Shown here: positions 20,851 through 64,000 of the stretch, piece after piece | Layout: the number at the start of each line of letters is the position of its first letter | How positions within the stretch are numbered: position 1 is the stretch's first letter | Source: Dictyostelium discoideum | Taxonomy: Eukaryota | Assembly: GCA_000004695.1 (NCBI GenBank) | Contig: CM000151.3 | Location: forward strand, 3,552,001 to 3,616,000 | Direction: 5' to 3' | DNA: 64,000 nucleotides | Translations under genes and position numbers: made by a program | Notes under the pieces: model-generated | Databases searched by the model: none | Seen by the model: the letters and a program-made list of their open reading frames with translations, nothing else | What the model was told of the DNA's origin: nothing

Positions 20851-21429
20851 ATGGAAAATTATTTATTTCGCGATGCAAATTCAGAAGAATTAAAAGAAAT
20901 AGAAGGATTAAAACCAATTAAAAAATTAGAAAATATTTTAAAAGATATTGGTGCACCAAATAAACAAATTACAACATTAGAAAATTATAAAAATTATTTA
21001 AAAGAAGATGCATTATCTAAAAAATCATGGGGATTAGAATCATTTAATCAACCAAATCAAACTGACGATGATTTATTTAAAGAGACTGTATTAATTGAAG
21101 GTGGTGATAATACTAAACATGTATATTGTTTCATTGATGCCTATACTGCAAATCCTGTAACTATTAAAGTAACAAGACCAGATGCAAATTCATTACAACC
21201 CTTGACCAATGTTGAATTATTAGCAATTTATTCAAAAGCTTTTCAATTCATCTATGAAGAAGAGGAAAAAGAAGTAGGTAATCCTGGTCACATTCAAGGT
21301 ATGCTTAATAGAGGTGTTTCTCATGGCAGATATGGAATTTGGGGTCACGATCTTTCAGATTTAGTTTACAATGGTTTTTCAGATGTTTTAATCTATAAAG
21401 ATTTCATTTTTTGTGAATTTAGAGTAGAT

Positions 21430-21435
<6 letters not shown>
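20851..21435 (+). CDS. Hypothetical 194-aa protein; paralog of the 22169 gene through a conserved C-terminal domain of about 110 aa
   Basis: Single ORF. Blocks shared with the neighbour: HVYC(F/V).., (V/I)KVT(R/K)PD.., LLAIY(S/T)KA(F/Y)Q(F/Y)(I/M)Y(E/K)E.., HG.Y..G..D..YNG(F/L)S..I.(K/F)D.F..C.F.VD. No signal peptide. Confidence 0.5.
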
Positions 21436-21472
<37 letters not shown>

Positions 21473-21727
21473 ATAATAAATAAAATATCTAAAAAAAAAA
21501 AAAAATATTACAAAAATAGAAAAATTTAGATTTTTTTATTTTTTTTATTTTTTATTTAATTTTCTTTTAATCTATTTTTGTAATTTTTTTGTTTTTTTTT
21601 TTTAGAAATTTTGATTTTTTTTTTTTTTTTTATTTATATTTTCTTTTAATCTTTTTAATTAAATTTTTTATAATTTCCATTTTAAGCACCAAGATCCTGG
21701 CTCTTTTTCATATTGCCTCTTGAATTG

Positions 21728-21783
<56 letters not shown>

Positions 21784-22168
21784 TTTAAATTTTTTTTTTT
21801 TTTTTTTTTATTATTTTTTTTTTATTTTAACAAAAATGGAAGATTACTAAAAATATATATTTGTATTATTTTAGAAATTTTTTTCATAAAAAAAGATCCA
21901 TAGAACATGATATATAACCTTTAAAATAAACTTTGTTTTATTTTATTTTATTTTATTTTTTTTTTTTTTTTTATTTTTTTTTTTTTTTTTATTTTTTTTT
22001 TTTAAAAATAAAACCTCATATTAAAATTAAACTATAAATAAGGATTTTAAAATTGAAATTTTCATTTTCATTTTCATTTTAATTTAAATAAATTGAAAAA
22101 CAAAAAACAAAAAAAAAAAAAAAAAAAAATATTGTTTCATAATAAAAAATAACCAAATAATAAATAAA

Positions 22169-22855
22169 ATGTTTGAAATTAATAAAATTTATATGGATAA
22201 TGCATCAGAAGATGAAAGAAAAATAATTTCAAAATCAAAAATTCAAAAAATTGATAAAGAGATATTACCAGTTTGTGCATCACCAGCATCTAATGTTAAT
22301 GATATTGATAATTTTCAAAATAAATTAAATAATCAATTAAATGAAAAGAAAAAGAAGATTAAAAATCAAGGTATTGTATCAATCGATAGTAATTCATTAC
22401 CAATAAAGAATAAGAATGAATTAATTCAATTCAATAAGCTATTATCAGAATCAAATGGTAATTTAAAAAATGAAAAAACAGAGTCATTTATTAATGACAA
22501 ATTAATCGTTGACAAGGATAAAAACCTGTATGGTGTTGGTAGATATGTGGATCATGTCTATTGTGTTTTTGGTAAATATCAATTAAAGAAATCCGTTATT
22601 AAAGTCACAAAACCTGATCCAAACATTCCAATTTCCTCTTTGGATTTATTGGCAATTTATACCAAAGCATATCAATACATGTACAAGGAGCAAAAACAAT
22701 GGTTTGACTATAAGAAAACTAGAATTAACATTTCAAATTCTCCTCATGGTATTTATCGTTATGGTATTAACGATATTCATTATAACGGTCTTTCAACAAT
22801 CATAGAGTTTGATACTTTTTTAGTTTGCTCTTTTGATGTTGACCCAATTAAATAA
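22169..22855 (+). CDS. Hypothetical 228-aa protein, paralog of the 20851 gene
   Basis: Single ORF with the same C-terminal conserved blocks as 20851..21435. The N-terminal half is diverged and Lys/Asn-rich. Confidence 0.5.
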   Translation: MFEINKIYMDNASEDERKIISKSKIQKIDKEILPVCASPASNVNDIDNFQNKLNNQLNEKKKKIKNQGIVSIDSNSLPIKNKNELIQFNKLLSESNGNLKNEKTESFINDKLIVDKDKNLYGVGRYVDHVYCVFGKYQLKKSVIKVTKPDPNIPISSLDLLAIYTKAYQYMYKEQKQWFDYKKTRINISNSPHGIYRYGINDIHYNGLSTIIEFDTFLVCSFDVDPIK

Positions 22856-23868: not shown

Positions 23869-24182
23869 GAAATTAAATCAATTTTTATCAGTATATTAAA
23901 TTTAAAAAAATAAATAAAAATGAATTAAAAGGACCAATTCCAATTCCAATTTTAGGAAATTTATATCAACTTACAAGTGGTTTACCACACAGAGATTTAA
24001 CTAAAATATCTGAAAAATATGGTGGAATTTATAGATTTTGGTTTGCTGATTTATACACTGTTGTATTATCTGATCCAATTTTGATTAGAGAAATGTTTGT
24101 TAACAATGGTGATTATTTCCTAGACAGACCAAAAATACCTTCAATAAGACATGCAACTCATTATCATGGTATTGCAAGTTAG

Positions 24183-24219
<37 letters not shown>

Positions 24220-25533
24220 AAAAAACTAAAAAAAAAATTAATTATTAATTTTTTTTTTTTTTTTTTTTTAAAAAAAAAAGCATCTTCTGGTGAATATTGG
24301 TTAAAAATTAGAGATATAATTAATAAAGCAATGAGAAAAACCAATTTAAAATTAATTTATGATTCATTAGATCAACAAGTTGATAATTTAATTGAATCAA
24401 TGAATAAAATTGAAAGTGATGGACAAGTATTTGAACCACGTATTTATTTTAAAAAATATACAATGGCAGCAATGTATAAATTCATTTTCAATGAAGAAAT
24501 AAATTTTAATAATGAAATATCTGAATTAATTGGGCCAATTGAACAAGTTTTCAAAGATTTAGGAAGTGGTAGTTTATTTGATGTTTTATTAATATCAAGA
24601 CCATTATATTATCAATGGATTGAACATACTGATAAAAATTATCCAAAAATTTTAAATTTTTTAAAAAAAAAATATCATCAACATTTAAAAACTTATAATC
24701 CAGAAATTCAAAGAGATTTATTAGATTTATTAATTAAAGAATATTATAGTGGAAGTGATGATGATATTTTAACAATTATTGCAACTATAAATGATTTATT
24801 TTTAGCTGGTTTGTATTAAATTAGTTTTATTATTTTTTATTAAAAAATTTCAATTATTAATAAATTTATTTAAAATAGGTACTGATACAAGTAGTGCTTC
24901 ATTAGAATATATGGTTATGATGTTAGTTAATTATCCAGAAATTCAAGAGAAAGTATATGATGAAATTAAATTAACTGTTAACGGTAGAAATAAAGTTTTA
25001 TTATCTGATAGACAATTTACACCATATACAGTTTCATTTATTAAAGAAACATTAAGATATAAACCACCATCTTCTGTTGGTGTACCAAGAACTACTTCTC
25101 AAGATATTATAATTGGTGATAAATTCATTCCAAAAGATGCTCAAATTTTTATAAATTATTATGGACTTTCAAGAAATCAAGATTATTTTGAAAATCCTGA
25201 ACAATTTGAACCATCAAGATTTATGAATCCAGATACAAATATTGCATTTTTACCATTTAGTATTGGTACAAGAAATTGTGTGTAAGTAAAAAAAAATTAT
25301 TTATTTTATTATTTTTTTTAATTATTTATTTAAAAATTGTTAAATTAATTTTTTTTTTTTTTTTAAGTGGTCAAAATTTTGCATTAGATGAAATGTTTCT
25401 TGCATTTTCAAATATAATTTTAAATTTTAAATTTAGTTCAATTGATGGGAAACAAATTGATGAAACTGAATTGTATGGAGTTACATTAAGATGCAAGAAT
25501 AAATTTAATGTATCCATTAAAAAAAGAATTTAA
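23667..25533 (+). CDS. Cytochrome P450 (array copy 1); 5 exons (about 23667-23723, 23892-24177, 24281-24808, 24879-25281, 25368-25533)
   Basis: Exon 1 is a membrane anchor, [19 protein letters not shown], with a gtttgt donor. Exon 2 reads ..[14 protein letters not shown]...[18 protein letters not shown]. It reads straight through the intron position used by copies 2 and 3 and ends at a gttagt donor. Exon 3 reads (T)[19 protein letters not shown]...FFLAG with a gtttgt donor. Exon 4 reads (G)TDTSS...ETLRYKPP...PSRF...PFSIGTRNC with a gtaagt donor. Exon 5 reads (V)[10 protein letters not shown]...KKRI with a stop. The ETLR, PxRF and FSxGxRxCxG heme-loop motifs are present. Confidence 0.75.
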
Positions 25534-25577
25534 TTCATTGTAAAATTTAATAAAAAATAATTAATTATAATAAATAA

Positions 25578-25630
<53 letters not shown>

Positions 25631-26371
25631 CTGTGAGCGTGTAAATATTGGATTAAATTTTATTGAATATTATTGTGTCCAAATTTAACCCAATACAAAA
25701 AAAATTATAATTTTTTATTATTTTTATTATTATTTTCATTATTTTTTTTATTTTTTTTTTTATTTTTTATTTTTTATAAAATCTCAAAAATTGAGAATAA
25801 CAATGAAAAAAAAAAAAAAAAAAAAAAAGAAAAAAAAAGAAAAGAAAAAAAGTGTGTGTATTTTTTGTGCATATTGAATAGAAAATGTGTGGGGATCTTA
25901 AAATTTTTTTTTAATTTTTTTTTTTTAATAATGGTGTTAGTATTATTTTTTTATTTTTTATTTTTTTTTTATTTTTTTTATTTTTTTTATTTTTTTTTAT
26001 TTTTTTTTTTTGTACATTAGATTGTGAGGAGACATCTTACTCAGTTGAGAAAACAATAATTTATTTTTATGATTCATAGATTTACTATGTTAATCATCTA
26101 TGTTGTCAGTTTTAATTCAAACATTATTAAAATAATTTTTTTTTTTTAATTTTTTTTTTTTTATTTTTTTTTTTTTTTTTTAAACTGTTGTTGAACAAAA
26201 AAAAAAAAAAAAAAAAAAACAAAAACAAAAACAAAAAAATATTTAAACCAAAAATTAAAAATATAAATAAAAATATAAAAAATAAAAATATAATTGTTGA
26301 AAAGAAAAAAAAAAAAAAAACAAAAAAACAAAAAAAAAAATTACTTGCACACAAGTGGTAATTTAAAAAAT

Positions 26372-27703
26372 ATGGCTTTATTTGAAATTATTATTTCATT
26401 ATTTGTTGTTTATATTATACATAATGCTGTAAGTCCTATTATTTTATATTAAAAAAAATAAAAATAAATATAATTAATCTAAATTATTATTATTATTATT
26501 TTTAAAAATAATCATTTTTTAATTTTTTAATTTTTTATTTTTAAAATAATTATTTTAATTAATCAGATTTCAAAATATAAAAAAATTCATGTTAATGAGT
26601 TATGTGGTCCAACCCCAATTCCAATTTTAGGAAATCTCCATCAATTTGGAGAATTACCTCATAGAGTATTAACAAAGATGACTAAAAAGTATGGCCATAT
26701 TTTAAGGGTTTATATGGCAGACATGTACACTGTTGTTGTATCTGATCCATTATTAATTAGAGAAATGTATGTTGATAATTCTGATATTTTCACCGATAGA
26801 GTTAAAAAACCAGTATGTATCAAAATTAAATAATTAATAAATTGTGTGTTAATTTATTTTTTTTTTAATTATTAATTATTTATTTATTAATTATTAATTA
26901 TTAATTATTTTATTTAAAAAATAAAAAATTTATAAATAATTAATAATAATAATTAATTAAAATAATTAATAATTTAAAAAAAAAAAAAAAATTAATTATT
27001 AATTATTAATTATTTATTTATTAATTATTAATTATTAATTATTTTATTTAAAAAATTAAAAATTTAAATAGTCAGTTGAACATGGAACATTTTATCATGG
27101 TACAGTTACAAGTTATGGTGAACATTGGAAAAACAATAGAGAAATTGTTGGTAAAGCAATGAGAAAAACAAATTTAAAACATATTTATGAATTATTAGAT
27201 AAACAAGTTGATGTATTAATAAGATCAATGAAATCAATTGAAACCAGTGGTAAAACATTTGATACTCGTTATTATATTACAAAATTTACAATGTCAGCAA
27301 TGTTTAAATTTCTTTTCAATCATGATATTCCAGAGGATGAAGATATTAATAAAGGTGATACACAAAAATTGATGGGTCCAATGTCTGAGGTTTTTCAAAA
27401 TGCTGGTAGAGGTAGTTTATTTGATGTCATAAATATTACTCAACCACTTTATCTTTTATATTTAGAAATGTTTGATCAAAGTTTTAAAGATATTATGAAA
27501 TATCATAGAGAGAAATATAATGAACATTTAAAAACCTTTGATCCAGATGTTGAAAGAGATTTACTTGATATTTTAATTAAAGAATATGGTACTGATAATG
27601 ATGATAAAATTTTATCAATTTTGGCAACAATTAATGATTTTTTCTTAGCAGGTTTGTATTTATAAGTATTTATTATTATTATTATTTAAAAAAATAATAT
27701 TCT

Positions 27704-27739
<36 letters not shown>

Positions 27740-28384
27740 GTGTTGATACAAGTTCAACTGCTTTAGAATCAATGGTATTGATGTTAACAAATTATCCAGA
27801 AATTCAAGAAAAAGCATTTGATGAAATAAAGACAGTTGTAAATGGTAGAAGTAAAGTTAATTTATCAGATAGACAATCAACACCTTATTTAGTTGCTGTA
27901 ATAAAAGAAACATTAAGATATAAACCAATGTCACCATTTGGTTTACCAAGATCTTCATCAAAGGATTGTATGATTGGTGGTCATTTCATTCCAAAGAATG
28001 CACAAATTTTAATTAATTATCAAGCACTTGGAATGAATGAAGAATATTATGAAAATCCAGAACAATTTGATCCATCAAGATTTTTAAAAGTTGAATCAAA
28101 TGTTGCATTTTTACCATTTAGTATTGGTATTAGAAGTTGTGTGTATGTATAATTAATTTTTAAAAAAAATTAAAAAATAAACAATTAATTAATCAATTAA
28201 ATTATTTTTTTATAGGGGTCAAAGTTTTGCTCAAGATGAGCTATACATTTGTATTTCAAATATTCTTTTAAATTTTAAATTAAAATCAATTGACGGTAAA
28301 AAGATTGATGAAACTGAGGAATATGGCCTCACACTAAAAACTAAAAATAGATTCAATGTAACTCTTGAAAAAAGAATTATCTAA
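26372..28384 (+). CDS. Cytochrome P450 (array copy 2); 5 exons (26372-26428, 26567-26812, 27072-27651, 27740-28142, 28216-28384)
   Basis: Exon 1 reads [19 protein letters not shown] with a gtaagt donor. Exon 2 reads [27 protein letters not shown]...DRVKKP with a gtatgt donor. Exon 3 reads [10 protein letters not shown]...FFLAG with a gtttgt donor. Exon 4 reads (G)[26 protein letters not shown] with a gtatgt donor. Exon 5 reads (V)GSKFAQDELY...EKRII with a stop. All phases verified by hand. Confidence 0.8.
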
Positions 28385-28419
28385 TTTTTATATTTATTTA
28401 AATAATTATAATAATAATA

Positions 28420-28465
<46 letters not shown>

Positions 28466-28567
28466 AATTTAAAAAAAAACTATTTAACTTCAAAAACAAA
28501 AAAAAGGATTCATTGTGACTCAAAAAAGAAATAACAAATTTTTTAATATATTTTTTAAATAATTAAA

Positions 28568-28600
<33 letters not shown>

Positions 28601-28949
28601 AATTAAAAATATAAAATTAATAAAAATACTAGTTAACGCGATAACCTTATTTTTATTGGTTTGATATTTAACTTTATTATTCAAGAATTTCATTTTTTAC
28701 TTTCAAATTTAATAAAGATTTTTTTTTATTTTTTTTTAAAAAAGAGGGTTGGTTTTTTTTTTTTTTTTCAATTTGAAAAGAATCTTTACTTTTGAAGATA
28801 TTTATAAATTACTATAATTAATTTTTATTTTTTTTAATTTTATTTTTTTATTTTTTTTTGGCATATTTTATGGTTTTTTTTTTTGATTTTATAATTAAAT
28901 TTTTTTTTTTTTTTTTTTTTTTAATTTCATAAAATCAATTTTTAAAAAA

Positions 28950-30749
28950 ATGATATTTGGCATCATTGTGTATCTATTTTTAATTTATATTTTACATAAT
29001 GCTGTAAGTATTTTTTTATTATTTTTTCTTTTTTTTATTTTCTAAAAAATTTAAAAAACATGTTAGTCTACCAAAAAAAAAAAAAAAAAAAAATAAAAAA
29101 AAAAAAATAAAAATAAAAGTATTCAAAATATAAAAGATTAAATGAAAATCAATTACCAGGTCCTTTTCCAATTCCTATATTGGGCAACATTTATCAGTTA
29201 ACCAATTTACCTCATTTTGATTTAACAAAGATGAGTGAAAAATATGGTAAAATCTTTAGAATTTATTTAGCAGACTTATATACAGTTATTGTTTGTGATC
29301 CAATAATTGCAAGAGAGCTATTTGTTGACAAGTTTGACAATTTCATTGACAGACCAAAAATACCAGTATGTAAAATTTTTTTTTTTTTTATAATAGTTTT
29401 TATTTCTTTTTTTTTTAATAATAATAAATAAGATTAATTAATTAAATAAATAAAATAAAATAAATAGTCAGTAAAACATGGAACATTTTATCATGGTACA
29501 GTAGCATCAATGGGTGATAATTGGAAAAATAATAAAGAGATTGTTGGTAAGGCAATGAGAAAGACCAATTTAAAACATATTTATCAATTATTGGATGATC
29601 AAGTTGATGTATTAATTGAATCGATGAGAACCATTGAATCCAGTGGTGAAACATTTGATCCACGTTATTATTTAACCAAATTTACAATGTCAGCAATGTT
29701 TAAATATATTTTCAATGAAGATATTTCCAAAGATGAAGATGTGCATAATGGTCAATTAGCACAATTAATGAAACCAATGCAAAAGGTATTCAAAGATTTC
29801 GGTACTGGTAGTTTATTTGATGTTTTAGAGATAACAAGACCATTGTATTTCTTATATTTAGAATGGTTTACAAGTCATTATTATCAAGTTATTAATTTTG
29901 GTAAAATGAAAATTTATAAACATTTAGAAACTTACAAACCAGATGTTCAAAGAGACTTAATGGATCTATTGATTAAAGAATATGGTACAGAAACTGATGA
30001 TCAAATTTTATCAATCTCTGCAACAGTTAGTGATTTCTTTTTAGCTGGTGTTGATACTTCTGCAACTTCTTTAGAATTAATTGTAATGATGTTAATTAAT
30101 TATCCAGAATATCAAGAGAAAGCTTATAATGAAATTAAATCAGCATTATCATCAAATGGTGGCGGTGGTGGTGGTGGTTTAACTCAGAGAAATAAAGTTT
30201 TGTTATCAGATAGACAATCAACACCATTTGTTGTATCATTATTTAAAGAAACATTAAGATATAAACCAATATCACCATTTGGTTTACCAAGATCAACTAC
30301 CTCTGATATCATTTTAAATAATGGTCAATTTATTCCAAAGAATGCTCAAATTTTAATTAATTATCATGCATTATCTAGAAATGAAGAATATTTTGAAAAT
30401 CCAAATCAATTTGATCCAACTAGATTTTTAAATTCTGATTCAAATCCAGCTTTCATGCCATTTAGTATTGGTCCAAGAAATTGCGTGTAATGTATCTAAA
30501 TTATATTCTCACTCAATTACTTAATTGATTTGAGTATTATCATGTATATATTTTCAGATATTAATTTTTTATTTTTAATAATTTAGTGGAAGTAATTTTG
30601 CCCAAGATGAAATTTATATTGCATTATCAAATATGATATTAAATTTCAAATTTAAATCAATTGATGGTAAACCAGTTGATGAAACTCAAACTTATGGTTT
30701 AACATTAAAACCAAACCCATTCAAAGTAATTCTTGAAAAAAGAAAATAA
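28950..30749 (+). CDS. Cytochrome P450 (array copy 3); 4 exons (28950-29003, 29120-29365, 29468-30486, 30587-30749)
   Basis: Exon 1 reads [18 protein letters not shown] with a gtaagt donor. Exon 2 reads [27 protein letters not shown]...DRPKIP with a gtatgt donor. Exon 3 runs [10 protein letters not shown]... through [12 protein letters not shown] (no intron at the LAG|VD position). It contains a (Gly)8 insertion, [12 protein letters not shown] and PFSIGPRNC, with a gtaatg donor. Exon 4 reads (V)[10 protein letters not shown]...EKRK with a stop. Confidence 0.8.
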
Positions 30750-45026: not shown

Positions 45027-49879
<4,853 letters not shown>

Positions 49880-50317
49880 TCAGCTTAATAAATTGTAGTT
49901 ACTTTTTTTATAAGAAAGTGGAAAGATGATAAATTTGTTAAAATGTTTAATAGAAAATTAAAAAAACTCTATTTAAATTTCCCCCCTTTTTTTTTTTTAT
50001 TGTGCGGATTGGCCAAACCAAACACTTTTTAATATTTTTTTTTAAATTTTTCAAATCAAACACTTTTTTTTTTTATTTTTTTTTTTTATTTGTTTTTTTT
50101 TTTTATTATTTTTTTTTTTTTTATTATTTTTTCTTTTTTCACCTTTTGGTATTGATTTTTTTTTTTTTCAGACCAGAAGTTTAGGTTTTGGCGATAAAAT
50201 CCAATGAACAGTTTTTTGTTTTTAATTAGAGAAAAAAAAAAAAAAAAAAAAAAAAAAAATTAGTACAAATATTTATATTCAATCTAAAATAATAAAATAT
50301 AATACCTCTAGAAGAAA

Positions 50318-50640
50318 ATGAGCATTCATTCTTTTAGGTTTCATTATATTATTGCTATTATTACTATTATTACTACTATATTGCTATTGCTATCACTATT
50401 GTTACTATTATTACTACTATATTGCTATTGCTATTACTATTATTACTATTATTACTACTATATTGCTCTTGCTATTACTGTTATTACTATTATATTATTA
50501 CTATTACCATTACTACTATATAGCTATTGCTATAACTATTGATATTAATATTTCTATTTCTATTACTATTATATGTATAATTAATTATATTATTATTTTG
50601 GTTTTATTAATTATGTTTTTTAAATTGTTTTTATTATTAT
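50318..50640. repeat. Complex minisatellite built from TATTACTAT, TATTGCTAT and CTATTACTA-type 9-10-mers
   Basis: About 300 bp of imperfect tandem units (attgctattactattattactactatattgctattgcta...). The ORF-track peptides here (LLLL/YYYY) are repeat artefacts, not genes. Confidence 0.7.
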
Positions 50641-51340
50641 AAACTAAAAGTGGTTTTTTTATTTAAAATAAAAAATGATCATTTGATTTTAACCAAAAAT
50701 ATAGATGTGATGGTTTAATATTATAATGGCCATAGTTTTTATAAATGAACAATTGTATTTCATTTTATTTATAGTTGGTTAAAATAATGAGTGAATTTTT
50801 TTTTTTTTAACTGTAAAACATTACCCTTTTTTTGAAATAAAAAGAAAATTAAAAAAAAAAAATCAAATTATATTAAATTAAAAACAGTTGGAGATATTTT
50901 CCCCCACTTTTTTTAAAATTAAAAAAAGAAAATAAAAATAAAATAAAAAAAAAATCTTTGATCAAAAATATATTAACTCGGTTGCAATGAAATATTTTAA
51001 GTATTTAAATAGATTTTTTTTTTTTTAACTTTAATTATTTTATTCACTCATATTTTATTTATCTATTATTTTTTTTTTTTCATATTTATTTTATTTATTT
51101 ATTATTTATTTATTATTTATTAATATCATTTTCGTTTATATATTTAAACATACCTCAATTTTATAATGGACTCAACCAAACTATATTGTAATCACAAACT
51201 CAATAGCAATTGCACCAGCCAAAAAAGAAGGGGTTCTACACCATGCCAACCATGCCCAGGATATCCTAAAAAATTAAAAATTTGTTAGAGTTGTTCCTTT
51301 CATCCAAAGGTAATTTGTTTATAAAATAAACAATAAAACT

Positions 51341-51342
<2 letters not shown>

Positions 51343-51410
<68 letters not shown>
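51343..51410. repeat. (AAT/ATA)n microsatellite
   Basis: Perfect trinucleotide run. Confidence 0.9.
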
Positions 51411-51412
<2 letters not shown>

Positions 51413-51839
51413 TAAAATAAATAAATTTTTTTTTATTTTCAAAGAAATTTTAGTATAAAACATTTTTATTGTGTAGTTTTAAATTTTTAAAATTAAAAAC
51501 AAATAAATATTCATAATGATTAACTTGGAAAGTTTTTTAATATTTTATAGTGAGTTTAAACCCTTTTTTTATTTTTTTTATTTTTTTTTTTTTTTTTTTT
51601 GTTTGACTTGGGTGAATTTTTTTAGTGTACACCGTTTAGAAAGCGAAATTTCAAAAAAAATTCCCTTCAACAATTAATTTGCTAAAAACGCACAATATTA
51701 ATTTTTTTTTTTTTTTTATAAAAACTCTATTAATTATTTCCCCCTTTATTATTATTTTTTATTTACAAATGAAAAATGAAACTTTAATTACATTTATGTA
51801 AAAATAATAAAGAGTTTACTTTCACTATTTGATTTAAAG

Positions 51840-53231
51840 ATAAAATAAATTACTATTACTCTTTTCAAGTTTTAATTGGCGAAAAATTAAATTTTGATCC
51901 AAGATTTATCAAAATTTTTCTCACACATTCCGATTATAAAAGTTTTAAGTATGTTGAGTCCAATGAAAAATTTCCAGAAATAGCTCCTCAAAGTGTTTAC
52001 CCAAGTAAGTAAAAATTTTTTAAATTTTTAAAATATAAATAACCTTGTTCTAATTAAAATAAAAGTTTTAGATTTACCCTCACTTTTTCAAAGCATTCAA
52101 AAAAAAGAACATATAACTCAAGATTTAGTTAAACCCTGTTCGAGTATGTATTCATTTTTTTTTTTTTTTTTTTTTTTTTTTGGTGAAAAATAAAAAATTT
52201 CCCAACCTTTTTTTATGTATCATTAAATGATATAATGAAAGAATGTATTTTCATATCAATGGATTTCAATGGTGGAGGTGATGCTTTAGTTGCTGAAGAT
52301 TTAAATCATTCAGATGAAATTGTATTATGTAAAAGGTTATTCAAGATCAGTTTTAGGTCTTTCTTTTTCTAATTCAAAATTAAATAAATTAAATGGAAAT
52401 GAAAATAAATTATTTAATTTAAATGATACGTTACTGAATATTGTAAAAAATAGAACTGATCAAACCAAACCATTAGCAATTTTCATTCATATTGATGAAT
52501 TTCAAATGGCACACCAATATGCAAAAGGATTTGGTAGTCAATATGATAATTTCGTTAAAAAAATGATATAGGCATTAGGAACATTCAAATGTACAGGTAA
52601 TAAAATTAATAAATCAAACGCACACAATAACAATATTTTCATCATACCATTTTTAACTGGAACCAATTCCGATTCATTAGAGATCGTTTTATCAAAATGG
52701 GAGATAGAGAATATAAATATTAAACCATTATCATATGAGTCATCAAAATTAAAAATTAAAAATAATGTTAAATATTTTCCACAATTAGATAATAATTTTT
52801 TTAAAATAATGGTTATCGATCTTGGTATTGTTCCAAGATACTTGGAATATTTGATATCTGATTTAGATGATCATTTTAATTCAATAAAACAAAGAGAACA
52901 TTTTAATAGTTACGGTTCAGATGCATTGATAGATATAGAAAATGAATCGGTTTCAATTCAAATGGTATCCAAATTTGGATTTTCACTCAAAAAACGTATT
53001 CAAAGAATGAGAATTGGTGGCTTCAATGATGAAACTTTGGAAACATTATTATGTTATTGTATATGTGGTAAATCAATCCAAGAATTATCATATGGCGGTC
53101 ACATCATCACACAAAATAGTAAAGGTAATGGTAATTTTAAAATCATCCTTCCTGTTATTGACTTAAACACTATGGCAACCAAATTAAATTTATTCGAATT
53201 TCAAACTATCACACAATTTCCATTATCTTAA
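51840..53231 (+). pseudogene. Decayed multi-exon gene of unknown function in the T1-T2 spacer (frameshift plus in-frame stop)
   Basis: Exon-like segments have proper gtaagt and gtatgt donors (..FQVLIGEKLNFDPRFIKIFLTHSDYKSFKYVESNEKFPEIAPQSVYPS | ..LDLPSLFQSIQKKEHITQDLVKPCSS | ..ISMDFNGGGDALVAEDLNHSDEIVLCK..). The frame then shifts at about 52330 into the ORF 52314..52571 frame. That ORF and ORF 52809..53231 share one frame and are separated by a single TAG at 52569-52571. Confidence 0.3.
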
Positions 53232-53763
53232 AAATTAATTGGTTTCAAATTCGAGTACATTACTGCTGTTATTTTAATGCTCAAAATAAACTGTACCCAT
53301 AATGTTAAAAAAATCATGGACCACTCACTTTGATTTTTGGTAACCATATAGAAAAAGAGTTTGGCAATCAAAAAGTTTTAAACAGTGTTGTCAGATTTAA
53401 AAAAATGAAATTGGTTTATGAAATTGAAAAGTGGATTATGTTAGTAAATATTTTTTAAAAAAAAAAAAAAAAAATTTTTTTTAATAATTAATTGCAATCA
53501 ACACCAAATTTACCACCTCTGGGAAGTATTTAAGTGAGGCTGATGTTAAAGTATTCATTCAACATATAGATAATTAAAATTAAGTTTCCCAAGTTTTATT
53601 ATTATACCAATTATAATTTCAAATTAAAAAGTTAGAGAATCTCAATTTCCAGCATACAAAGAAATTTTAATTTACCACCAACTTAACATCAATTCTTTTT
53701 TTTAAATACTATTTTGCATAGAGTAGATACAAAAAAATTAAATGAAATAATCTTGTAGTCTTA

Positions 53764-53950
53764 ATTAAATATCATGGTGAATCAACCTTTACACAAACAT
53801 CAATACCTACTATAATTTATCCAAATACAATGTTAATTAATGATGTCAAACCAACTGAAAAACCATTCATTATCAAAGTACAAGAAAATTCAAAATTCTT
53901 TTCAAATGAATTATCTGTTGTGTTGTTATTGTATCAGTTTCTTTCTTATT
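53764..53950 (+). pseudogene. Orphan fragment of a T-family gene (exon 6 portion), plus-strand, in the spacer
   Basis: It translates to HGESTFTQTSIPTIIYPNTMLINDVKPTEKPFIIKVQENSKFFSNELSVV. That is near-identical to T2 residues YYGESTFTQTSIPTISYPNAMLINDVKPTDKPFIIKVQEAFFSNEFTV. There is no flanking homology. Confidence 0.4.
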
Positions 53951-54160
53951 TTTTAAAAAAAGTAATTCAAAAAAACTCTAAGACAATTAAAACAATTTAA
54001 AAATAAATAAAATCCACTAGTTAAATATATTTTTTTTAAAAATTTTATTTAAATAATTCCATAGAAAAAATTAATTATTTAAAAATCTTTATTTAAACTA
54101 CTCCTTTTAAAAAGGAATAAACTTTTAAAAAATTAATACACAGTATTTTTTATTTGTTAA

Positions 54161-56407
54161 TTATGATAGTTTTTTTAATTTTCTATTAAATGTTTTTACA
54201 AATTTATCGTCTTTCCACTTTTTTATAATAAAATAAGAAGCTGCAACAACAACGACAGCAGCAAAAGCAACGGAACCAATAATAATACCAGCGAGTTGAG
54301 AACTTGTTAGTTTTGATTTATTTGATGTACAAATTGAATTATTATCATTATTTGATACTGGTTTACTATCTACTAATACTGAAAAGTCTGGATCAATAAT
54401 TATTGATTGTTTATAATTTGGTATTGTAATACCAATGAATGATTGTGATATTGATGATGTTTGAATTGAGTTCATTTTTGAATCTAATAATTGATTTTCA
54501 ATTGAAGATACTTTTGAATCGATGATTGCTCTTTTAATGAATCTACCATAAAGTGAATGATCATCAATTTGAATTTTAAAGAAGTTTGAATTATCACCAT
54601 CGCTTGTATCTCCAAATACTTTTAATGAACAAGTATCTTTGGAAGTTGATGATTCGAATAATGCTGACATTACAAGTTGAAGACTATTTAATTGATTTAA
54701 AAATTTATATTCTGTAATTTCAATTGTATATTTAATACTTGATGGATTCATTGTTATATTATTATTTGCAAATTGAATGATTGTTGTTTGATTGAACCAT
54801 TCTAAAGTTACAGTAATATTGGTTGTTAATGTATTTGTTGATTTTGTATCACCACTTTGAATACTTGTAAAGTATTGACTTTTAATATTATTAATTGGTG
54901 TATAAATCCATTTATCAAATGTATATAAATTAACTTAATTTGAATTAAAATCTAATTCTCTTAATGATACAATTGAAATCAATGATTTGAATAAATAATT
55001 TGTACTATTTGATGTTTGATTATTGTTATCGATAATTGGTAATTCAGTTGATGGTTGTGATGTATTTGTTGATGGTTGTGGTATAATTATAACTTGTGAA
55101 TTACAATCATTACCAATCCAAGGTGGATAACAAACACATCCACTTGATGAACAATATCCTTGTTTTGATCCACCACATAATGGTTCACCTAAACATGTTT
55201 GAGGTTTATTCGTTGGTATTGGTGATGATGTAGGTGTTGACGATGACGAGTCTATTGAAGAAGATGATGATGATGGATTTGGTGTTGGGGATTCTGTTGG
55301 TAATTCTGTTGGAATTGGTGGTACAAAACGAATATCAAATACTAATGGATAAACAGTGAATTCATTTGAAAAGAAAGCTTCTTGTACTTTGATAATGAAT
55401 GGTTTATCAGTTGGTTTGACATCATTGATTAACATTGCATTTGGATAACTTATAGTTGGTATTGATGTTTGTGTAAATGTTGATTCACCATAATATTTAA
55501 TTAATACTACAAGATTTGAAGAAAAGAAACCAGCACCTATTATCCATAATTCGCCACCACTTGTTGTAATTTGAGAAACTCTATAGATATCTAACCTTTT
55601 AGCAAGTCCTGATGATACTGCTTTCATTGAAAACTTATACGGGAATAGAATTCTTAGTGAGTCGCTTGAATAACCACCATAACAACCACCATTATTAATT
55701 AATCCATAAACACTGAATGTAATTTCTGAAGTGTACAATACACCTCTTGGTAAGTAAACGTAACATTGATAGGTTGCAGAGGTGATATTCTTTGATTTAA
55801 TAATTGTTTCACATTCAAATATTTGAAATTCAATTGCTTCAACGTAAACCATTGGATATTGAAGATCTTTTAATCCACTTTCGTAATCAGTTGCTTCAAA
55901 TGAGAAATATACTTCCATATGTCCATCTGCAGGAATAGCTACTTGTGGTGTAAATAATGTTAAAATTGGTGGTGAACTATCGATACCATCATTTTCACCA
56001 CTACACTTTTTATATAATTTATTTATTGTTGAGTCTAATAAATAATTTATAAATGGGTTATTAACACCACCACCTACAAATGATTCAGATACTGAAAAGT
56101 AGCAACCAATACCTTGAGTATCATATAATTTAACTTGTGTGATAATATAATTTTGAGATGCACATTTACTTGGTAAAGTTATATTAATTTGATAATCACC
56201 ATTAAATTTATCACCTCTTGTTAAATTTTGAGTTGTTAAATGGAATTTATAAGTTGAACTATCCATTTCACCTCTAACTATAATATCAGCATAATCAAAA
56301 CCATTAATTGGATCATCTATTGTAAATTTCCAACCAAATTCATTTGTTGAATTAACCTTTTCAATATTACTAAATATTGGTCCATATCCATCGAAATCTG
56401 TAGATTC

Positions 56408-56489
<82 letters not shown>

Positions 56490-58989
56490 TTGAAAACTAT
56501 TGATAAATTGTATTTATACCTATATTATAGATACTTACTTGATAATGTTACATATAGTTGTGCAGATGATGGTAAGAATTCACTATCTAAAGGTGTTGAA
56601 TAAGAGTTGATAAAGAATCTATATGGAATATGACCAGGTTGGGTATTTGCAGGTATTTTAAATTTAATTTGATACATTGATATTGTTGAATTCCAAGTTG
56701 AAAAGTATAGTGTTGAACTGTTGAAATGGTATTTACTATTCTTTACTAATGTAACTACGTCCATTAACATAAATCCAATTGGTTTTTCATCATTATCCAT
56801 TCTACCTCCATTATATGTAAAATAAACTACATTATCAACTGATTTATTTATTATATCGATAAAATTATTAAAAAATGTAATATTATTAATAAGTAATAAG
56901 TTATTATTATTATTATTATTTTTATTATTATTTTCATAAAATGAATCAATTTTTAAAAGTGGATTAACTGAATAATATTGACCGATTGAATATGTTTCTG
57001 TTTGTCCCAATCTATCGAATACAATAAATTTGTCAATTGGATATCTGTATGTATCTATAACTGCTGCAAATACAATTTCATCACCTATACTTTCACTATC
57101 TATCATTGATTCATATCTTAATGCAATTGTATTGACATCACCAATACCAACAAATGCTTCATATCCATTATCTTTTACCCTAAATTTTAATAAATAATTT
57201 CCTGAAAATAAATGAACCCATTCAAATTTTAAAAGAATTGGTGCATTTACAGTTGGTGCAACTATAATTTTTTTTTTTTTTTTAAAAAAAAAACAGTTTA
57301 TGTTTTAATGATAATAATAATAATAATATAATAAAAATATATATTAATATTAAAAAATTTAAATATTATTATTATTAATTATTATTTTAAATTTATTTAT
57401 AATAAATTATATACATACTTATATTTGAATTAATGTTGATTAGATTTGTTTTATCAACAGTAAAAACTTTTGGTGAACTAATGAGAGCCTTGTATCTCAA
57501 AAATGAAGCGGATACATTATAATTAAAATTATTACCACTTCCAAAACCAAATGGCCATTGAAAATCTTTTGTGAATAAACCAAATGAATAGGTTGTTGTT
57601 AAGAAATTAAATTGATTTGATGTGGTAATTGTAAACATTGATGAATTTAATAAAAAAATACCATCACTATTAAAGTATGTAACAATAAATGGATTTGGAA
57701 CAAAAGGTTCTTTACTAAATTCTAAATAAAATTATAATAATAAAAATTATTATCATTACTATTAAAATTCATTTATAAAGATATATTTTAAAATACTTAC
57801 TTGTAATATTTAAAATTGGTGTTTCATAGATTTTTATTAAAGAATTATTAAACTCTGAATAAATTGATAATTTTGAAGGTGCTGAATTAATAAGTTGACC
57901 TAAATATGTTACAGTTTTGTCATTTTGATATATTGGTGTTATTTGAGAATAGTTGCTAAACCCATTATTAACTTGAATATAAGGTTCATAATCAACACTG
58001 GTTTTATTTATTGTAACTGAATAAAGTGGAGAATTGTCATATCCATATTCAATTATATTTGTGCTTTCACTTGGATAAATTACAACTTTTGAATTGCTTT
58101 CATCAACATTATAATCTAAAAAATAATAAAATTAAACGAGGATTAATTATTTTTTGAAATTTTTAAATAAAAAAAAATAAAAAAATAAAAAAAAAAAATG
58201 AAAAGTGCAAGTTCAAAAAAAAATAAAAAAAAAATACCTACATGAACTAAATGATGATGGAAATTTTACTGTAATATTATTACCATTATTAAATAAAAGT
58301 GAAATTATATTTTCTTTTGTTAAATTTTGAAATTGATAATCAGAAAATGAAAAACTATTTGGAAATGTTGGTTTGACATTGAAAATTCCCCCACTCGAAC
58401 TTAATGATTTTAGTTTATTTTTTAATCCTGTAAATTGAATAATTCCATTCATTCCTGATTTAGATTTTTTAAAATTATTTGTTAATAAAACCTTATAACC
58501 CAAAGAATTAAATTCAATTACTTTTAAAAAAAAAAATTAGCAATTTAAATAATTTTTTAAAATATTAAATTAATTAATTTAATGGGGCAAATACAAACAT
58601 TCACATTTATAAGATATTGAATAATTTTGTTGAATTTTAATACCATCTGAATTTTCATAAGTTGATGTTAATATTAGACTATCATTTCCTAATGGCAAAT
58701 TTAAACCATTAAAAGATGCATATGCATGACCATCTTTAGTTATAAATGATGATGTATCCAAAACAAAAGATTTAGATAATAAAAATGAAAATGAACTTCC
58801 AGAATAATTTATTATATTAACAGTTTGGATAAAAAATTTAAAATTAAAAGAACAAGTTTGTGAATTTGATGAATCAGGATATACTATATACGAATTTGCT
58901 TCTGAAATATCTGTTATGTTCAATGATTGACTATTACAATAATTTAAAAAAATACAATAAAATAAATACAAAACAAAATTTTTATTCAT
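54161..58989 (-). pseudogene. T-family copy T2 (reverse strand): same 6-exon layout as T1 but with an in-frame TAA (54935-54937) where T1 and T3 have CAA
   Basis: Exon 1 is a signal peptide, MNKNFVLYLFYCIFLNYCNSQS (ORF 58579..58989). Exons 2-5 are homologous to T1 at about 30-45% aa identity. Exon 6 is ORFs 54935..56266 plus 54161..54751. The interrupting codon reads ..LRELDFNSN* VNLYTFDKW.. against ..FNSNQVNLYTFDKW.. in both paralogs. The tail is of the alternative type ..SYFIIKKWKDDKFVKTFNRKLKKLS. Intron 5 carries a (TAA)n microsatellite at 56410-56490. Confidence 0.55.
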
Positions 58990-60303: not shown

Positions 60304-60698
60304 ATGATAATTAAAAATAATGATGGAGAATCAACAATAAGTGGAAAAGGTAAATTATTTATAATAAATTGAAATAATATATCCAATTTTGTTTATTTAA
60401 ATATTTATTTCAATCCAACATTTAAAAATAATTTTTAGCAATCACATTACCAACTCCAATGATCTTTCCACCACCTCTTTTTATTCGTTTTATTCAATAT
60501 AAAACAGATGGTAAACTTTGGAGTAATGAAAATTTTGAAATCAATAGTGGAAAAGTTGAATGCAATGGAGAAGATTATGAACTTGTTCAATCAAGGTGTA
60601 TAACTCAGAAAATTGATGATGATTCAGAAAATGTAATGGACATTAGAATAATGCCATCTAGACCACTCAATAGAGATTTACCATATTTTAATTAAATT
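60304..60698 (+). CDS. Small (about 100 aa) hypothetical protein, 2 exons (about 60304-60352, 60437-60698). A degenerate tandem copy lies at about 59878-60090
   Basis: Exon 1 reads MIIKNNDGESTISGK with a gtaaat donor. An acceptor tttag precedes (A)ITLPTPMIFPPPLFIRFIQYKTDGKLWSNENFEINSGKVECNGEDYELVQSRCITQKIDDDSENVMDIRIMPSRPLNRDLPYFN (ORF 60459..60695). The upstream copy (MPTDIKITNSYNGGST.. / ..PPQFWFRVIDYKLEGQTW) has lost the donor. Confidence 0.3.
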
Positions 60699-61045: not shown

Positions 61046-64000
61046 TCAGTTCATTTTTTGTAATTTGTTTTGTACTTTTCTTTGGAACAAAACCGATTTT
61101 TTGTTTTTCACAACCAAGTAAACAACTGATACAATAACTACAGTGGCAAAAGCAACGGAACCAATAATAATACCAGCGAGTTGAGCACTTGTTAGTTTTG
61201 ATTTATTTGATGTACAAATTGAATTATTATCATTATTTGATACTGGTTTACTATCTACTAATACTGAAAAGTCTGGATCAATAATTATTGATTGTTTATA
61301 GTTTGGTATTGTAATACCAATGAATGATTGTGATACTGATGATGTTTGAACTGAGTTCATTTTTGAATCTAATAATTGATTTTCAATTGAAGATACTTTT
61401 GAATCGATGATTGCTCTTTTAATGAATCTACCATAAAGTGAATGGTCATCAATTTGAATTTTAAAGAAGTTTGAATTATCACCATCGCTTGTATCTCCAA
61501 ATTCTTTTAATGAACAAGTATCTTTGGAAGTTGATGATTCGAATAATGCTGACATTACAAGTTGAAGACTATTTAATTGATTTAAAAATTTATATTCTGT
61601 AATTTCAATTGTATATTTAATACTTGATGGATTCATTGTTATATTATTATTTGCGAATTGAATGATTTTTGTTTGATTGAACCATTCTAAAGTTACAGTA
61701 ATATTAGTTATTAATGGATTTGTTGATTTTGTATCACCACTTTGGATACTTGTAAAGTATTGACTTTTAATATTATTAATTGGTGTATAAATCCATTTAT
61801 CAAATGTATATAAATTAACTTGATTCGAATTAAAATCTAATTCTCTTAATGATACAATTGAAATCAATGATTTGAATAAATAATTTGTACTATTTGATGT
61901 TTGATTATTGTTATCGATAATTGGTAATTCAGTTGATGGCTGTGATGTATTTGTTGATGGTTGTGGTATAATTATAACTTGTGAATTACAATCATTACCA
62001 ATCCAAGGTGGATAACAAATACATCCACTTGGCGAACAAAAACCTTGTTTTGATCCACCACATACTGGTTCACCTAAACATGTTTGTGGTTTATTCGTTG
62101 GTATTGGTGATGATGTAGGTATTGGTGTTTGTGTTGGTGTTGGATCTATAAAATTATAAACTATTGGATTGACAGTGAATTCATTTGATGTGAGTGGTAG
62201 GTCTGAAACTTTGATAATGAATGGTTTATCAGTTGGTTTAATATTTTTAATAAACATTGCACTCCAATAAACTGTAGTTGGTACTATTATTTGATTAAAG
62301 CTTGAGTCTCCTTCATATTTTACATATACTTGTTGCGTTGAATTGAAACATCTACCTGTTATCCATAACTCGCTATCAAATGAATTAAATTTACTGCATT
62401 TTGTGATTTGTATTACTTTATTAAAAGCTATATTATTAATTGTATATATAAAAGATAAATTATTTAGTGATTCGCTTGAATATCCGCTATAATAACCGCC
62501 ATTATTAATGAATCCATAAACACTGAAAATAATATCTGAATTGTATCCAAATCCTATTGGTAAATTGATGGTACATGTATAGGTTGCAGCTGTTTCGTTT
62601 ATTGAAATAATAGATGATACACATTCAAGTGTTTGTGCTTCTATTGTTTGAATGTAAACAATTGGATATTGTTTATCTTTTAAACCACTTTCAATATCTA
62701 CTGCTTCAAAGTTGAATAATAAATATTGAGTACCATCACTATTTTGTCTTAATATTGGTATGAATGAAGTTAAAATTGGTGGTGAACTATCGATACCATC
62801 ATTTTCACCACTACATGTTTTATATACTTTATTTATTGTTGGATCTGATAAATAATTTATAAATACATTTTTAATACCATCTATTCCATTAACTACTGAA
62901 AATTCACCTGAATAACCTTGAGTATCATATAATTTAACTTGTGTGATAATATAATTTTGAGATGCGCATTTACTTGGTAAAGTTATATTAATTTGATAAT
63001 CACCATTAAATTTATCACCTCTTGTTAAATTTTGAGTTGTTAAATGGAATTTATAAGTTGAACTATCCATTTCACCTCTCACTATAATATCACCATAATC
63101 AAAACCATTAATTGGATCATCTATTGTAAATTTCCAACCAAATTCATTTGTTGAATTAACCTTTTCAATATTACTAAATATTGGTCCATATTCATCGAAA
63201 TGTTTAGAAACAACTATTAGTTGTGATGATAAAGGAAACATATCATTTGTTATTGCTCGAAAACCACACCATAAAAAGAAACTGAGTGGACCAGGTCTAG
63301 TGTTTGCAAGAACTGTAAATTTAATTTGATATTTTGAAATTGTTGAATTCCAAGTTGCAAACTTTAAACTATTGAAATCTATATTAGAATCTGTGGTATT
63401 ACTATTTAAAATAAAAAGTGAGAATGAAGCTGAAGGATTACTATGGGTTTGAGTACCATTATAATTGAAATAAATTATATTATCAACTGATTTATTTGCC
63501 ACATCAATATAATTTTTTAAAAATGTAATATTTTCTATTAAAACAGGTAATATTGTTGGAGCTTTATAATCTATAACTGAAAATGGATTAATTGAAAAAT
63601 AACTATTTAAATAATAAACTTGACTCTTTTTAAAAGTTGAATCTCCAATAGATAAAAATTGAAAACCACGCCCTTTAAAATCATAAACAATTTCATATAT
63701 ATTATTTTCAGCATCTACCAATGATTCTTGTCTATATATTCCATTTGCATCATCATCATTAATTTGAATGAAAAGATTATAACCAATCTCTTTATATGTT
63801 GGTTTTATTTTAATTCTTAATAAATGAAATTGTTCAAAAAGGTATATAACTTTACATGATTCTAATTCTAATGGTAGTAATGATGAATTTATTGCTATAT
63901 TTAAAAATATTTTTTAATGTTAGTAATTGTTTTGAGTGTGTGTGTGTTGTTCGGTAGTAGTTTAGAATATTAATGATTTTATATGTGTATATACTTACTA
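61046..64000 (-). CDS. T-family copy T3 (reverse strand), 3' part: fused exon 5+6 (61046 to about 63905) with the upstream exons beyond the window end
   Basis: ORF 61046..63721 is 891 aa. The frame continues to an acceptor aatatag at about 63905 (..ESCKVIYLFEQFHLLRIKIK..). It reads ...SSQLIVVSKHFDEYGPIFSNIEKV... straight through the position where T1 and T2 carry the microsatellite-containing intron 5. The C-terminal 400 aa are near-identical to T1 (same EGF knot, TM and tail VKNKKSVLFQRKVQNKLQKMN). Confidence 0.6.

Follow-up and report, generated by a model that had tools for sequence, protein, structure and literature searches.

A 64,000-nt stretch of chromosome 2 of Dictyostelium discoideum AX4 (GenBank assembly GCA_000004695.1, contig CM000151.3, positions 3,552,001 to 3,616,000 of the forward strand; in the following called the window, in whose own numbering positions are given) carries three neighbouring paralogs, T1, T2 and T3, that encode predicted cell-surface proteins. 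One of them, T2, is interrupted by an in-frame TAA codon, which is the subject of the present analysis. The window has a GC content of about 20%. Exact-sequence look-ups returned identical AX4 proteins for T1, for T2 and for a neighbouring gene coding for 675 amino acids (aa), DDB_G0272903/DDB_G0273953. T1 is situated on the forward strand (45027-49879), is intact, and its six-exon splice model is identical to XP_644336.1 (EAL70411.1 = EAL71088.1; 1408 aa). T2 is represented in the AX4 reference by the 1391-aa protein XP_644339.1 / EAL70414.1 / UniProt Q556L9, and a second AX4 copy, XP_645075.2 / Q558J3, shows the exchange C12F as its sole difference. Such paired accessions per gene are expected from the known 750-kb duplication on chromosome 2 of AX3/AX4 (PMC2643946). 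T3 is encoded on the reverse strand and continues past the window end; its 3' part (61046-63721) is intact where seen.

T2 is read on the reverse strand from an ATG at 58989 and consists of six open exon segments that are collinear with T1 and separated by GT..AG introns. In the splice model, exon 1 (58599-58989) codes for a predicted signal peptide and is followed by exon 2 (58242-58520), exon 3 (57801-58115), exon 4 (57419-57721), exon 5 (56539-57261) and the long exon 6 (54161-56397), which encodes the C-terminal part of DUF7035, then DUF7034, DUF7949, the ComC supersandwich, a transmembrane (TM) helix and the tail, and ends with the natural stop TAA at 54163-54161. The donors are GTAAGT (twice), GTATGT, GTAGGT and GTTTGT, while the acceptors are T/A-rich and end with AG. 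T3 is devoid of intron 5, the equivalents of exons 5 and 6 of T1 and T2 being fused into one 891-codon open reading frame (ORF; 61046-63721, minus strand), which indicates intron loss or gain inside the cluster. The natural stop codons differ as well: T1 (49877-49879) and T3 (61046-61048) use TGA in the context ATG AAC TGA TCA/TCG GCT TAA, T2 uses TAA.

All three paralogs share the Pfam order DUF7035, DUF7034, DUF7949 (EGF-like) and ComC supersandwich, after which come a hydrophobic stretch and a short tail. T2 scores above the gathering threshold for all four domains in the family order (DUF7035 69.5, DUF7034 74.8, DUF7949 57.6 and ComC_SSD 51.6 bits, with cut-offs of 24-27), and its homologs have the same architecture. 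Together with the hydrophobic N-terminus MNKNFVLYLFYCIFLNYCNSQ and the hydrophobic stretch LAGIIIGSVAFAAVVVVAASYFII, both seen by eye in the translations, this domain order predicts that the T2 family consists of type-I membrane glycoproteins with signal peptide, DUF7035, DUF7034, DUF7949, ComC supersandwich, TM helix and short cytoplasmic tail. The homologs found were limited to dictyostelids, in searches that were lossy for this N/S-rich family, since the first one missed even T1 and T2 themselves. The paralogs resemble the D. discoideum ComC family, whose members are membrane proteins with EGF domains, in that they match the ComC supersandwich domain and have an EGF-like module. In PMC4931340, comC is listed with a secreted plus TM topology, which is the same topology as predicted for T1-T3.

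Within exon 6 of T2, minus-strand positions 54952-54923 read GAT TTT AAT TCA AAT TAA GTT AAT TTA TAT, which places the TAA at 54937-54935, corresponding to codon 1158 of a 1415-codon read-through T2 model. At up to three mismatches this 30-mer has exactly three copies in the window, namely in T2 itself (0 mismatches), in T1 (49088-49117, plus strand; 2) and in T3 (61837-61808, minus strand; 2), and no match was obtained in 100 shuffles. The copies in T1 and T3 both read TCG AAT CAA, with the CAA at 49103-49105 and 61822-61820, respectively. The TAA is the sole internal stop in the 2106-nt frame 56266-54161 and the only lesion found in T2. The 257 codons past it (54164-54934, minus strand) all stay open, which is not expected by chance (P = 5e-11 from base composition; 0 of 20,000 shuffles were stop-free), and 228-230 of these 257 codons are identical to T1 and T3. 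They encode about 80% of ComC_SSD (profile positions 46-222), the TM helix LAGIIIGSVAFAAVVVVAASYFII and the cytoplasmic tail; about 45 of the 222 positions of the ComC_SSD profile lie before the stop. A homolog search with the 257 downstream residues returned distant species alone. The preliminary description of this DNA, which had been made from the sequence alone, had noted a TAA in T2 where both paralogs have CAA, within an exon 6 that otherwise remains in frame and conserved; the first statement was confirmed by the minus-strand reading and the 30-mer search, and the second agrees with the six exons parallel to T1 and the high identity downstream of the stop.

For comparison, the assemblies GCA_054883475.1 (ACTFIT_), GCA_054859355.1 (ACTFIW_) and the ACTFIR assembly were used. 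GCA_054883475.1 most likely belongs to the Nanopore plus Illumina de novo set of Holland et al. 2025 (PMC12745789). It is 99.77% identical to the window over 24.9 kb, with 12 substitutions and 4 insertions or deletions that are nearly all situated in intergenic A/T runs, and it carries the identical TAA inside identical T2 flanks. The different poly-A lengths exclude that the reference was simply copied, hence the presence of the same TAA in this independent assembly excludes a sequencing error, which the preliminary description had named as the finding that would undo its claim. The near-identity to AX4 suggests that the assembly most likely represents AX2-214. NC4 is the parent from which AX2 and AX3/AX4 descend separately, therefore the TAA allele would go back at least to NC4.

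A different picture emerged from the diverged wild assembly GCA_054859355.1, which is labelled D. discoideum, is about 92-94% identical in this region and probably represents strain CR116C or OT3A. At the site of the stop, the T2 ortholog by position (L004 14955-19690, minus strand) has AAT CAA GTT, and its exon 6 is a single open segment of 745 codons; the product P0079 (1393 aa) reads ...LDFNSNQVNLYTF... at this place. In the column of the site, AX4 T2 has T, whereas C is found in each of the five copies compared, namely T1, T3 and the three paralogs of ACTFIW, showing that the T at 54937 is derived by a C-to-T change. The CAA together with the open exon 6 in the ACTFIW ortholog further shows that the allele is lineage-specific, in line with the earlier suggestion of a strain-specific inactivation that could be checked by looking for CAA in other strains. 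In ACTFIR, the other wild assembly, the contigs with T1 (L005 end 13645) and T2 (L006 end 9707) stop inside or just before the 3' block shared by the paralogs, because convergent near-identical repeats break even long-read assembly, and the ACTFIR T1 model is shortened to 972 aa with a spurious tail. For the T2 ORF pieces of 443, 196 and 193 aa, no exact match in further strains or in Logan is on record.

The reference protein of T2 does not contain the stop, because it was annotated with an additional intron. The 1391 aa of XP_644339.1 (P0072) are reproduced exactly only by the six exons plus a skip of 55005-54934, a 72-nt intron of the form GTACAA...AATTAAG, which drops 24 codons including the TAA and leaves an Ile junction codon (...QTSN-I-NLYTF...), so that STNYLFKSLISIVSLRELDFNSN*V becomes I. 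Both AX4 duplicate copies (P0072, P0078) are annotated with this skip, and the 2025 ACTFIT model P0077 (1378 aa) makes the same one. The 72-nt segment has GT..AG ends and can be removed in frame. T1 and T3 contain it with 70/72 positions identical and with the GT and AG unchanged; it is annotated as coding in T1 and situated inside the open frame in T3. This GT and AG are present in the CAA ortholog, too, yet P0079 reads through the segment as coding. The locus-tag series suggests that the ACTFIW and ACTFIT models come from the same pipeline; since this pipeline reads the CAA allele through and skips the TAA allele, it is the stop and not the splice signals that triggers the skip. In-frame introns that start upstream of the TAA exist only with lengths of 72, 171, 180 and 198 nt, all with the same AG, and a short intron other than the annotated one of 72 nt was rejected.

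The properties of the segment also differ from those of the introns in the neighbourhood. The donor GTACAA is poor, while nine of the ten real introns of T1 and T2 start with GTA, mostly followed by AGT or TGT. The AT content amounts to 81.9% compared to 87.2-95.9% in these ten introns, with 7% of exon windows being as AT-rich as the segment, and its length is 72 nt versus 78-179 nt. In T1 exon 6, 92.5% of positions are inside some in-frame GT..AG segment of 51-198 nt, implying that a gene finder can nearly always bypass a stop. The skipped residues contain the most conserved motif of the N-terminus of the ComC supersandwich domain, including the family-wide motif SLISIVSLRELDF, in which S78, R86 and E87 show a conservation of at least 90% among 21 homologs. 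The corresponding region of T1, modelled with AlphaFold2 (predicted template modelling score 0.72; predicted local distance difference test values of about 87-94 in the strands flanking the site), is a multi-strand β-sandwich; its first β-strand of 12 residues, KSLISIVSLREL, is located within the skipped segment and the Gln marks the start of strand 2. Collectively, these sequence features make it most likely that the 72-nt intron is a gene-finder workaround, i.e. an annotation artefact.

Artificial introns that bypass an in-frame TAA occur in dictyBase models, as reported by Singh et al. (2017, PMC5282741). The likeness to T2 is that an intron with no evident purpose other than the removal of an in-frame TAA holds a reference model open. 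In the cases described in that paper, however, the introns are shorter than 5 bp and were traced by RNA-seq to errors in the genome sequence, whereas the T2 intron has a plausible length of 72 nt and GT..AG ends. Moreover, the lesion in T2 is biological, unlike those cases, because the TAA was confirmed by the independent assembly.

Two observations on the other end of the gene should be added. The 2025 T2 models in three assemblies (L003 P0077, L004 P0079 and L006 P0028) start with MNKNFVFQSLNITD, the signal-peptide core LYLFYxIFLNYCNS being spliced out, which is probably a second pipeline artefact. Within the signal peptide, codon 12 (58955) is TGT (Cys12) in the window and TTT (Phe) in P0078, the ACTFIT assembly and the ACTFIW ortholog; Cys12 results either from a mutation of one AX4 copy after the duplication or from an error in the Sanger reference.

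The age of the stop can be judged from the sequence around it. Using the method of Nei and Gojobori on exon 6 of AX4 T2 and ACTFIW T2, the ratio of nonsynonymous to synonymous substitution rates (dN/dS) was 0.33 overall, 0.28 upstream and 0.36 downstream of the stop, at a dS of about 0.08-0.18. In the 3' block, three nonsynonymous and three synonymous derived changes are private to T2 besides the stop. Hence, neither the dN/dS values nor the private changes showed any decay of T2, and the lack of another lesion together with a dN/dS of about 0.3 on either side indicates that the TAA is recent, as assumed before, although the downstream region is a weak clock, because gene conversion also keeps the downstream sequence clean. 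Such conversion is evident from the distribution of differences along exon 6. The 5' two-thirds of this exon are 50-75% identical among T1, T2 and T3, while the last ~950 nt, from the EGF-like module through the ComC supersandwich, are 96-100% identical. This homogenised block spans 54260-55230 in T2 (minus strand), corresponds to T1 48810-49780 and T3 ~61145-62115, and contains the TAA. Within it, the AX4 paralogs differ among themselves at 19-22 sites, compared to 32-51 sites against the ACTFIW copies and 45 between AX4 T2 and its positional ortholog. The AX4 paralogs are thus closer to each other than to the orthologs, which indicates gene conversion (concerted evolution) after the lineage split. 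Beside the stop, T2 has kept the ancestral TCA while T1 and T3 share the derived TCG, hence this stretch has not been overwritten recently. Conversion with T1 or T3 could repair the TAA or copy it into one of them. The TM helix and the tail of T2, downstream of ~54260, are outside the homogenised block, and the cytoplasmic tail is divergent (KKWKDDKFVKTFNRKLKKLS).

Taken together, we regard it as very likely that the TAA in T2 is a genuine young nonsense allele, null or truncated, of the NC4-derived lineage, which has been hidden by an annotation error. A C-to-T transition has turned the Gln codon 1158 (CAA) into TAA in the NC4-derived laboratory lineage, and translation would end after residue 1157. 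In the 1157-aa product, the N-terminal domains and the EGF-like module would be retained, whereas the supersandwich would be reduced to its first β-strand and the membrane anchor and the cytoplasmic tail would be lost. The product would therefore be unanchored and probably misfolded at its C-terminus, or would have no stable form at all, making the allele null or at best one for a secreted truncated protein. Since the stop is in the last exon, exon-junction-dependent nonsense-mediated mRNA decay would not apply; from general knowledge, the resulting 3' untranslated region of about 0.8 kb could still destabilise the T2 mRNA. The young pseudogene or null allele proposed in the preliminary description is hence supported by the excluded sequencing error, the CAA in the ortholog and the lack of any other lesion. 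Some points weigh against our interpretation. A truncated secreted protein could keep some function. GCA_054883475.1 shares the NC4-derived lineage and is silent on other wild North American strains, and the CAA-bearing ortholog was seen in one assembly, the ACTFIR contigs ending before the site. Finally, the in-frame GT..AG segment, at 72 nt, falls little short of the 78 nt of the shortest real intron of T1 and T2 and was chosen by two separate annotations.

Regarding the fate of the product, it is unlikely that the stop is real and the 1157-aa secreted protein represents a functional, selected soluble form. Signal peptide, DUF7035, DUF7034 and EGF-like module would all be intact in its N-terminal 1157 residues, but one orphan β-strand would be left from a sandwich of about 18 strands, there is no sign of adaptation, and the downstream sequence has not decayed. 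Slightly less plausible still is that 55005-54934 is a genuine intron, possibly using cryptic sites recruited after the mutation, which would yield a 1391-aa membrane protein that misses 24 residues. Its GT..AG ends, the preserved frame, the exact agreement with XP_644339.1 and the choice of the same skip for the TAA allele by a second pipeline (P0077) are in its favour. These arguments lose weight in view of the coding nature of the matching segment in T1 and the CAA ortholog, the GTACAA donor with an AT content below the 87-96% of real introns, and the fact that a chance skip is on hand at 92.5% of positions; moreover, the ComC supersandwich domain would lose its first conserved β-strand through the splicing. 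The particular version in which the cryptic GT (55005) and AG (54934) of the former coding sequence are now used in vivo to splice out the 24 stop-containing codons appears very improbable. If true, such intronization would represent an intron seen just after its birth in one laboratory lineage, while two paralogs and a wild strain have kept the unspliced ancestral state.

To two further explanations we give only a minute chance. One would be an error in the AX4 sequence or assembly with C as the true base. It could be considered because TAA-containing mini-introns in DDB_G0279477 were shown by RNA-seq to reflect errors (PMC5282741) and because the block around the site exists in three copies, which favours misassembly; against this, the same TAA is found among T2-specific flanking variants in an assembly made independently de novo, and the two AX4 duplicate copies were both annotated with the same skip. 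The other would be a decoding of the TAA, either as Gln or through programmed readthrough. The perfectly preserved downstream frame and the ancestral codon CAA would fit to it, and TAA encodes Gln in some protists. A ciliate-like code was rejected, since TAA terminates T2 itself and five other ORFs checked in the window. With regard to readthrough, the TAA is followed by GTTAAT, which is not known as a stimulatory context, and TAA-GUU-AAU is not known to match any readthrough motif. The downstream conservation is accounted for by recency and by gene conversion with T1/T3.

The event is of an ordinary kind, being a young nonsense mutation, specific to one lineage, in a clustered and fast-evolving family of surface proteins, and is here combined with a known kind of annotation workaround. 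A comparable situation exists in the tgr family, for which Holland et al. (2025, PMC12745789) give 38 genes and 26 pseudogenes in AX4, i.e. pseudogenes at 26 of 64 loci. Like T1-T3, the tgr genes are clustered, fast-evolving paralogs for membrane glycoproteins with frequent copy loss and local recombination or gene conversion. They differ in that T1-T3 are without IPT/TIG domains, the part in common with some IPT/TIG proteins being the C-terminal EGF-like module plus ComC_SSD with about 50% identity, and in that T2, in the records consulted, is given as a protein-coding gene and not as a pseudogene.

A literature search on Q556L9, Q558J3 and the XP accessions found nothing. Hence, the fictitious deletion in XP_644339.1, XP_645075.2 and KAM9952106.1 appears to be unrecorded, and the same seems to hold for the contrast between a probable null of T2 in the laboratory lineage and an intact copy in a wild isolate. 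The consequences are mainly practical ones. XP_644339.1 (Q556L9) and its duplicate XP_645075.2 (Q558J3) are most likely proteins that are never made, with a 24-residue deletion inside a conserved β-sandwich, and the annotation error was carried into the 2025 re-annotation. A flag as pseudogene or nonsense allele would probably be appropriate for T2 in the lineage of NC4, AX2 and AX4. The laboratory strains in standard use probably represent natural knock-outs or truncations of one clustered ComC-type surface glycoprotein that is intact in at least one wild isolate, which is relevant for work on the ComC-type family as well as for comparisons between laboratory and wild strains. Furthermore, T2 offers a tidy example of a lesion within a gene-conversion tract that is common to two intact neighbours.

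The cluster structure varies between strains, as indicated by the spacing of T1 and T2 and by the gene content. In AX4, the convergent T1 and T2 are separated by a gap of about 4.2 kb (49969-54169) that holds a multi-exon gene for 367 aa (~51516-53231, plus strand), while the stop codons of T1 and T2 are 233 nt apart in ACTFIW (L004 14722-14955). ACTFIW also has an extra gene for 774 aa between the 675-aa gene and T1. Between T2 and T3, a 78-aa ORF (60459-60695, plus strand) matches Dicty_CAD over profile positions 21-82 of 82 (E = 3.5e-29) and probably forms exon 2 of a cad-like gene; no exact match for it in further strains or in Logan is on record. Dicty_CAD genes for 106 aa occur at this place in the wild assemblies, one in ACTFIW and two in ACTFIR. 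Elsewhere, the window encodes a 253-aa protein with F5/8 type C and H-type lectin domains, which we take to be discoidin I. Tandem sets of similar ORFs are located at 24151-30490 and 20851-22855 (both plus strand). In the former, the pattern MRKTNLK(H/L)IY…DxLIKEYG…FLAG is common to the three ORFs 24151-24819, 27159-27665 and 29510-30490, with only the third having a long C-terminal part, and the first two may be fragments or pseudogenes. The latter comprises two ORFs that are paralogous to each other, 20851-21435 and 22169-22855.

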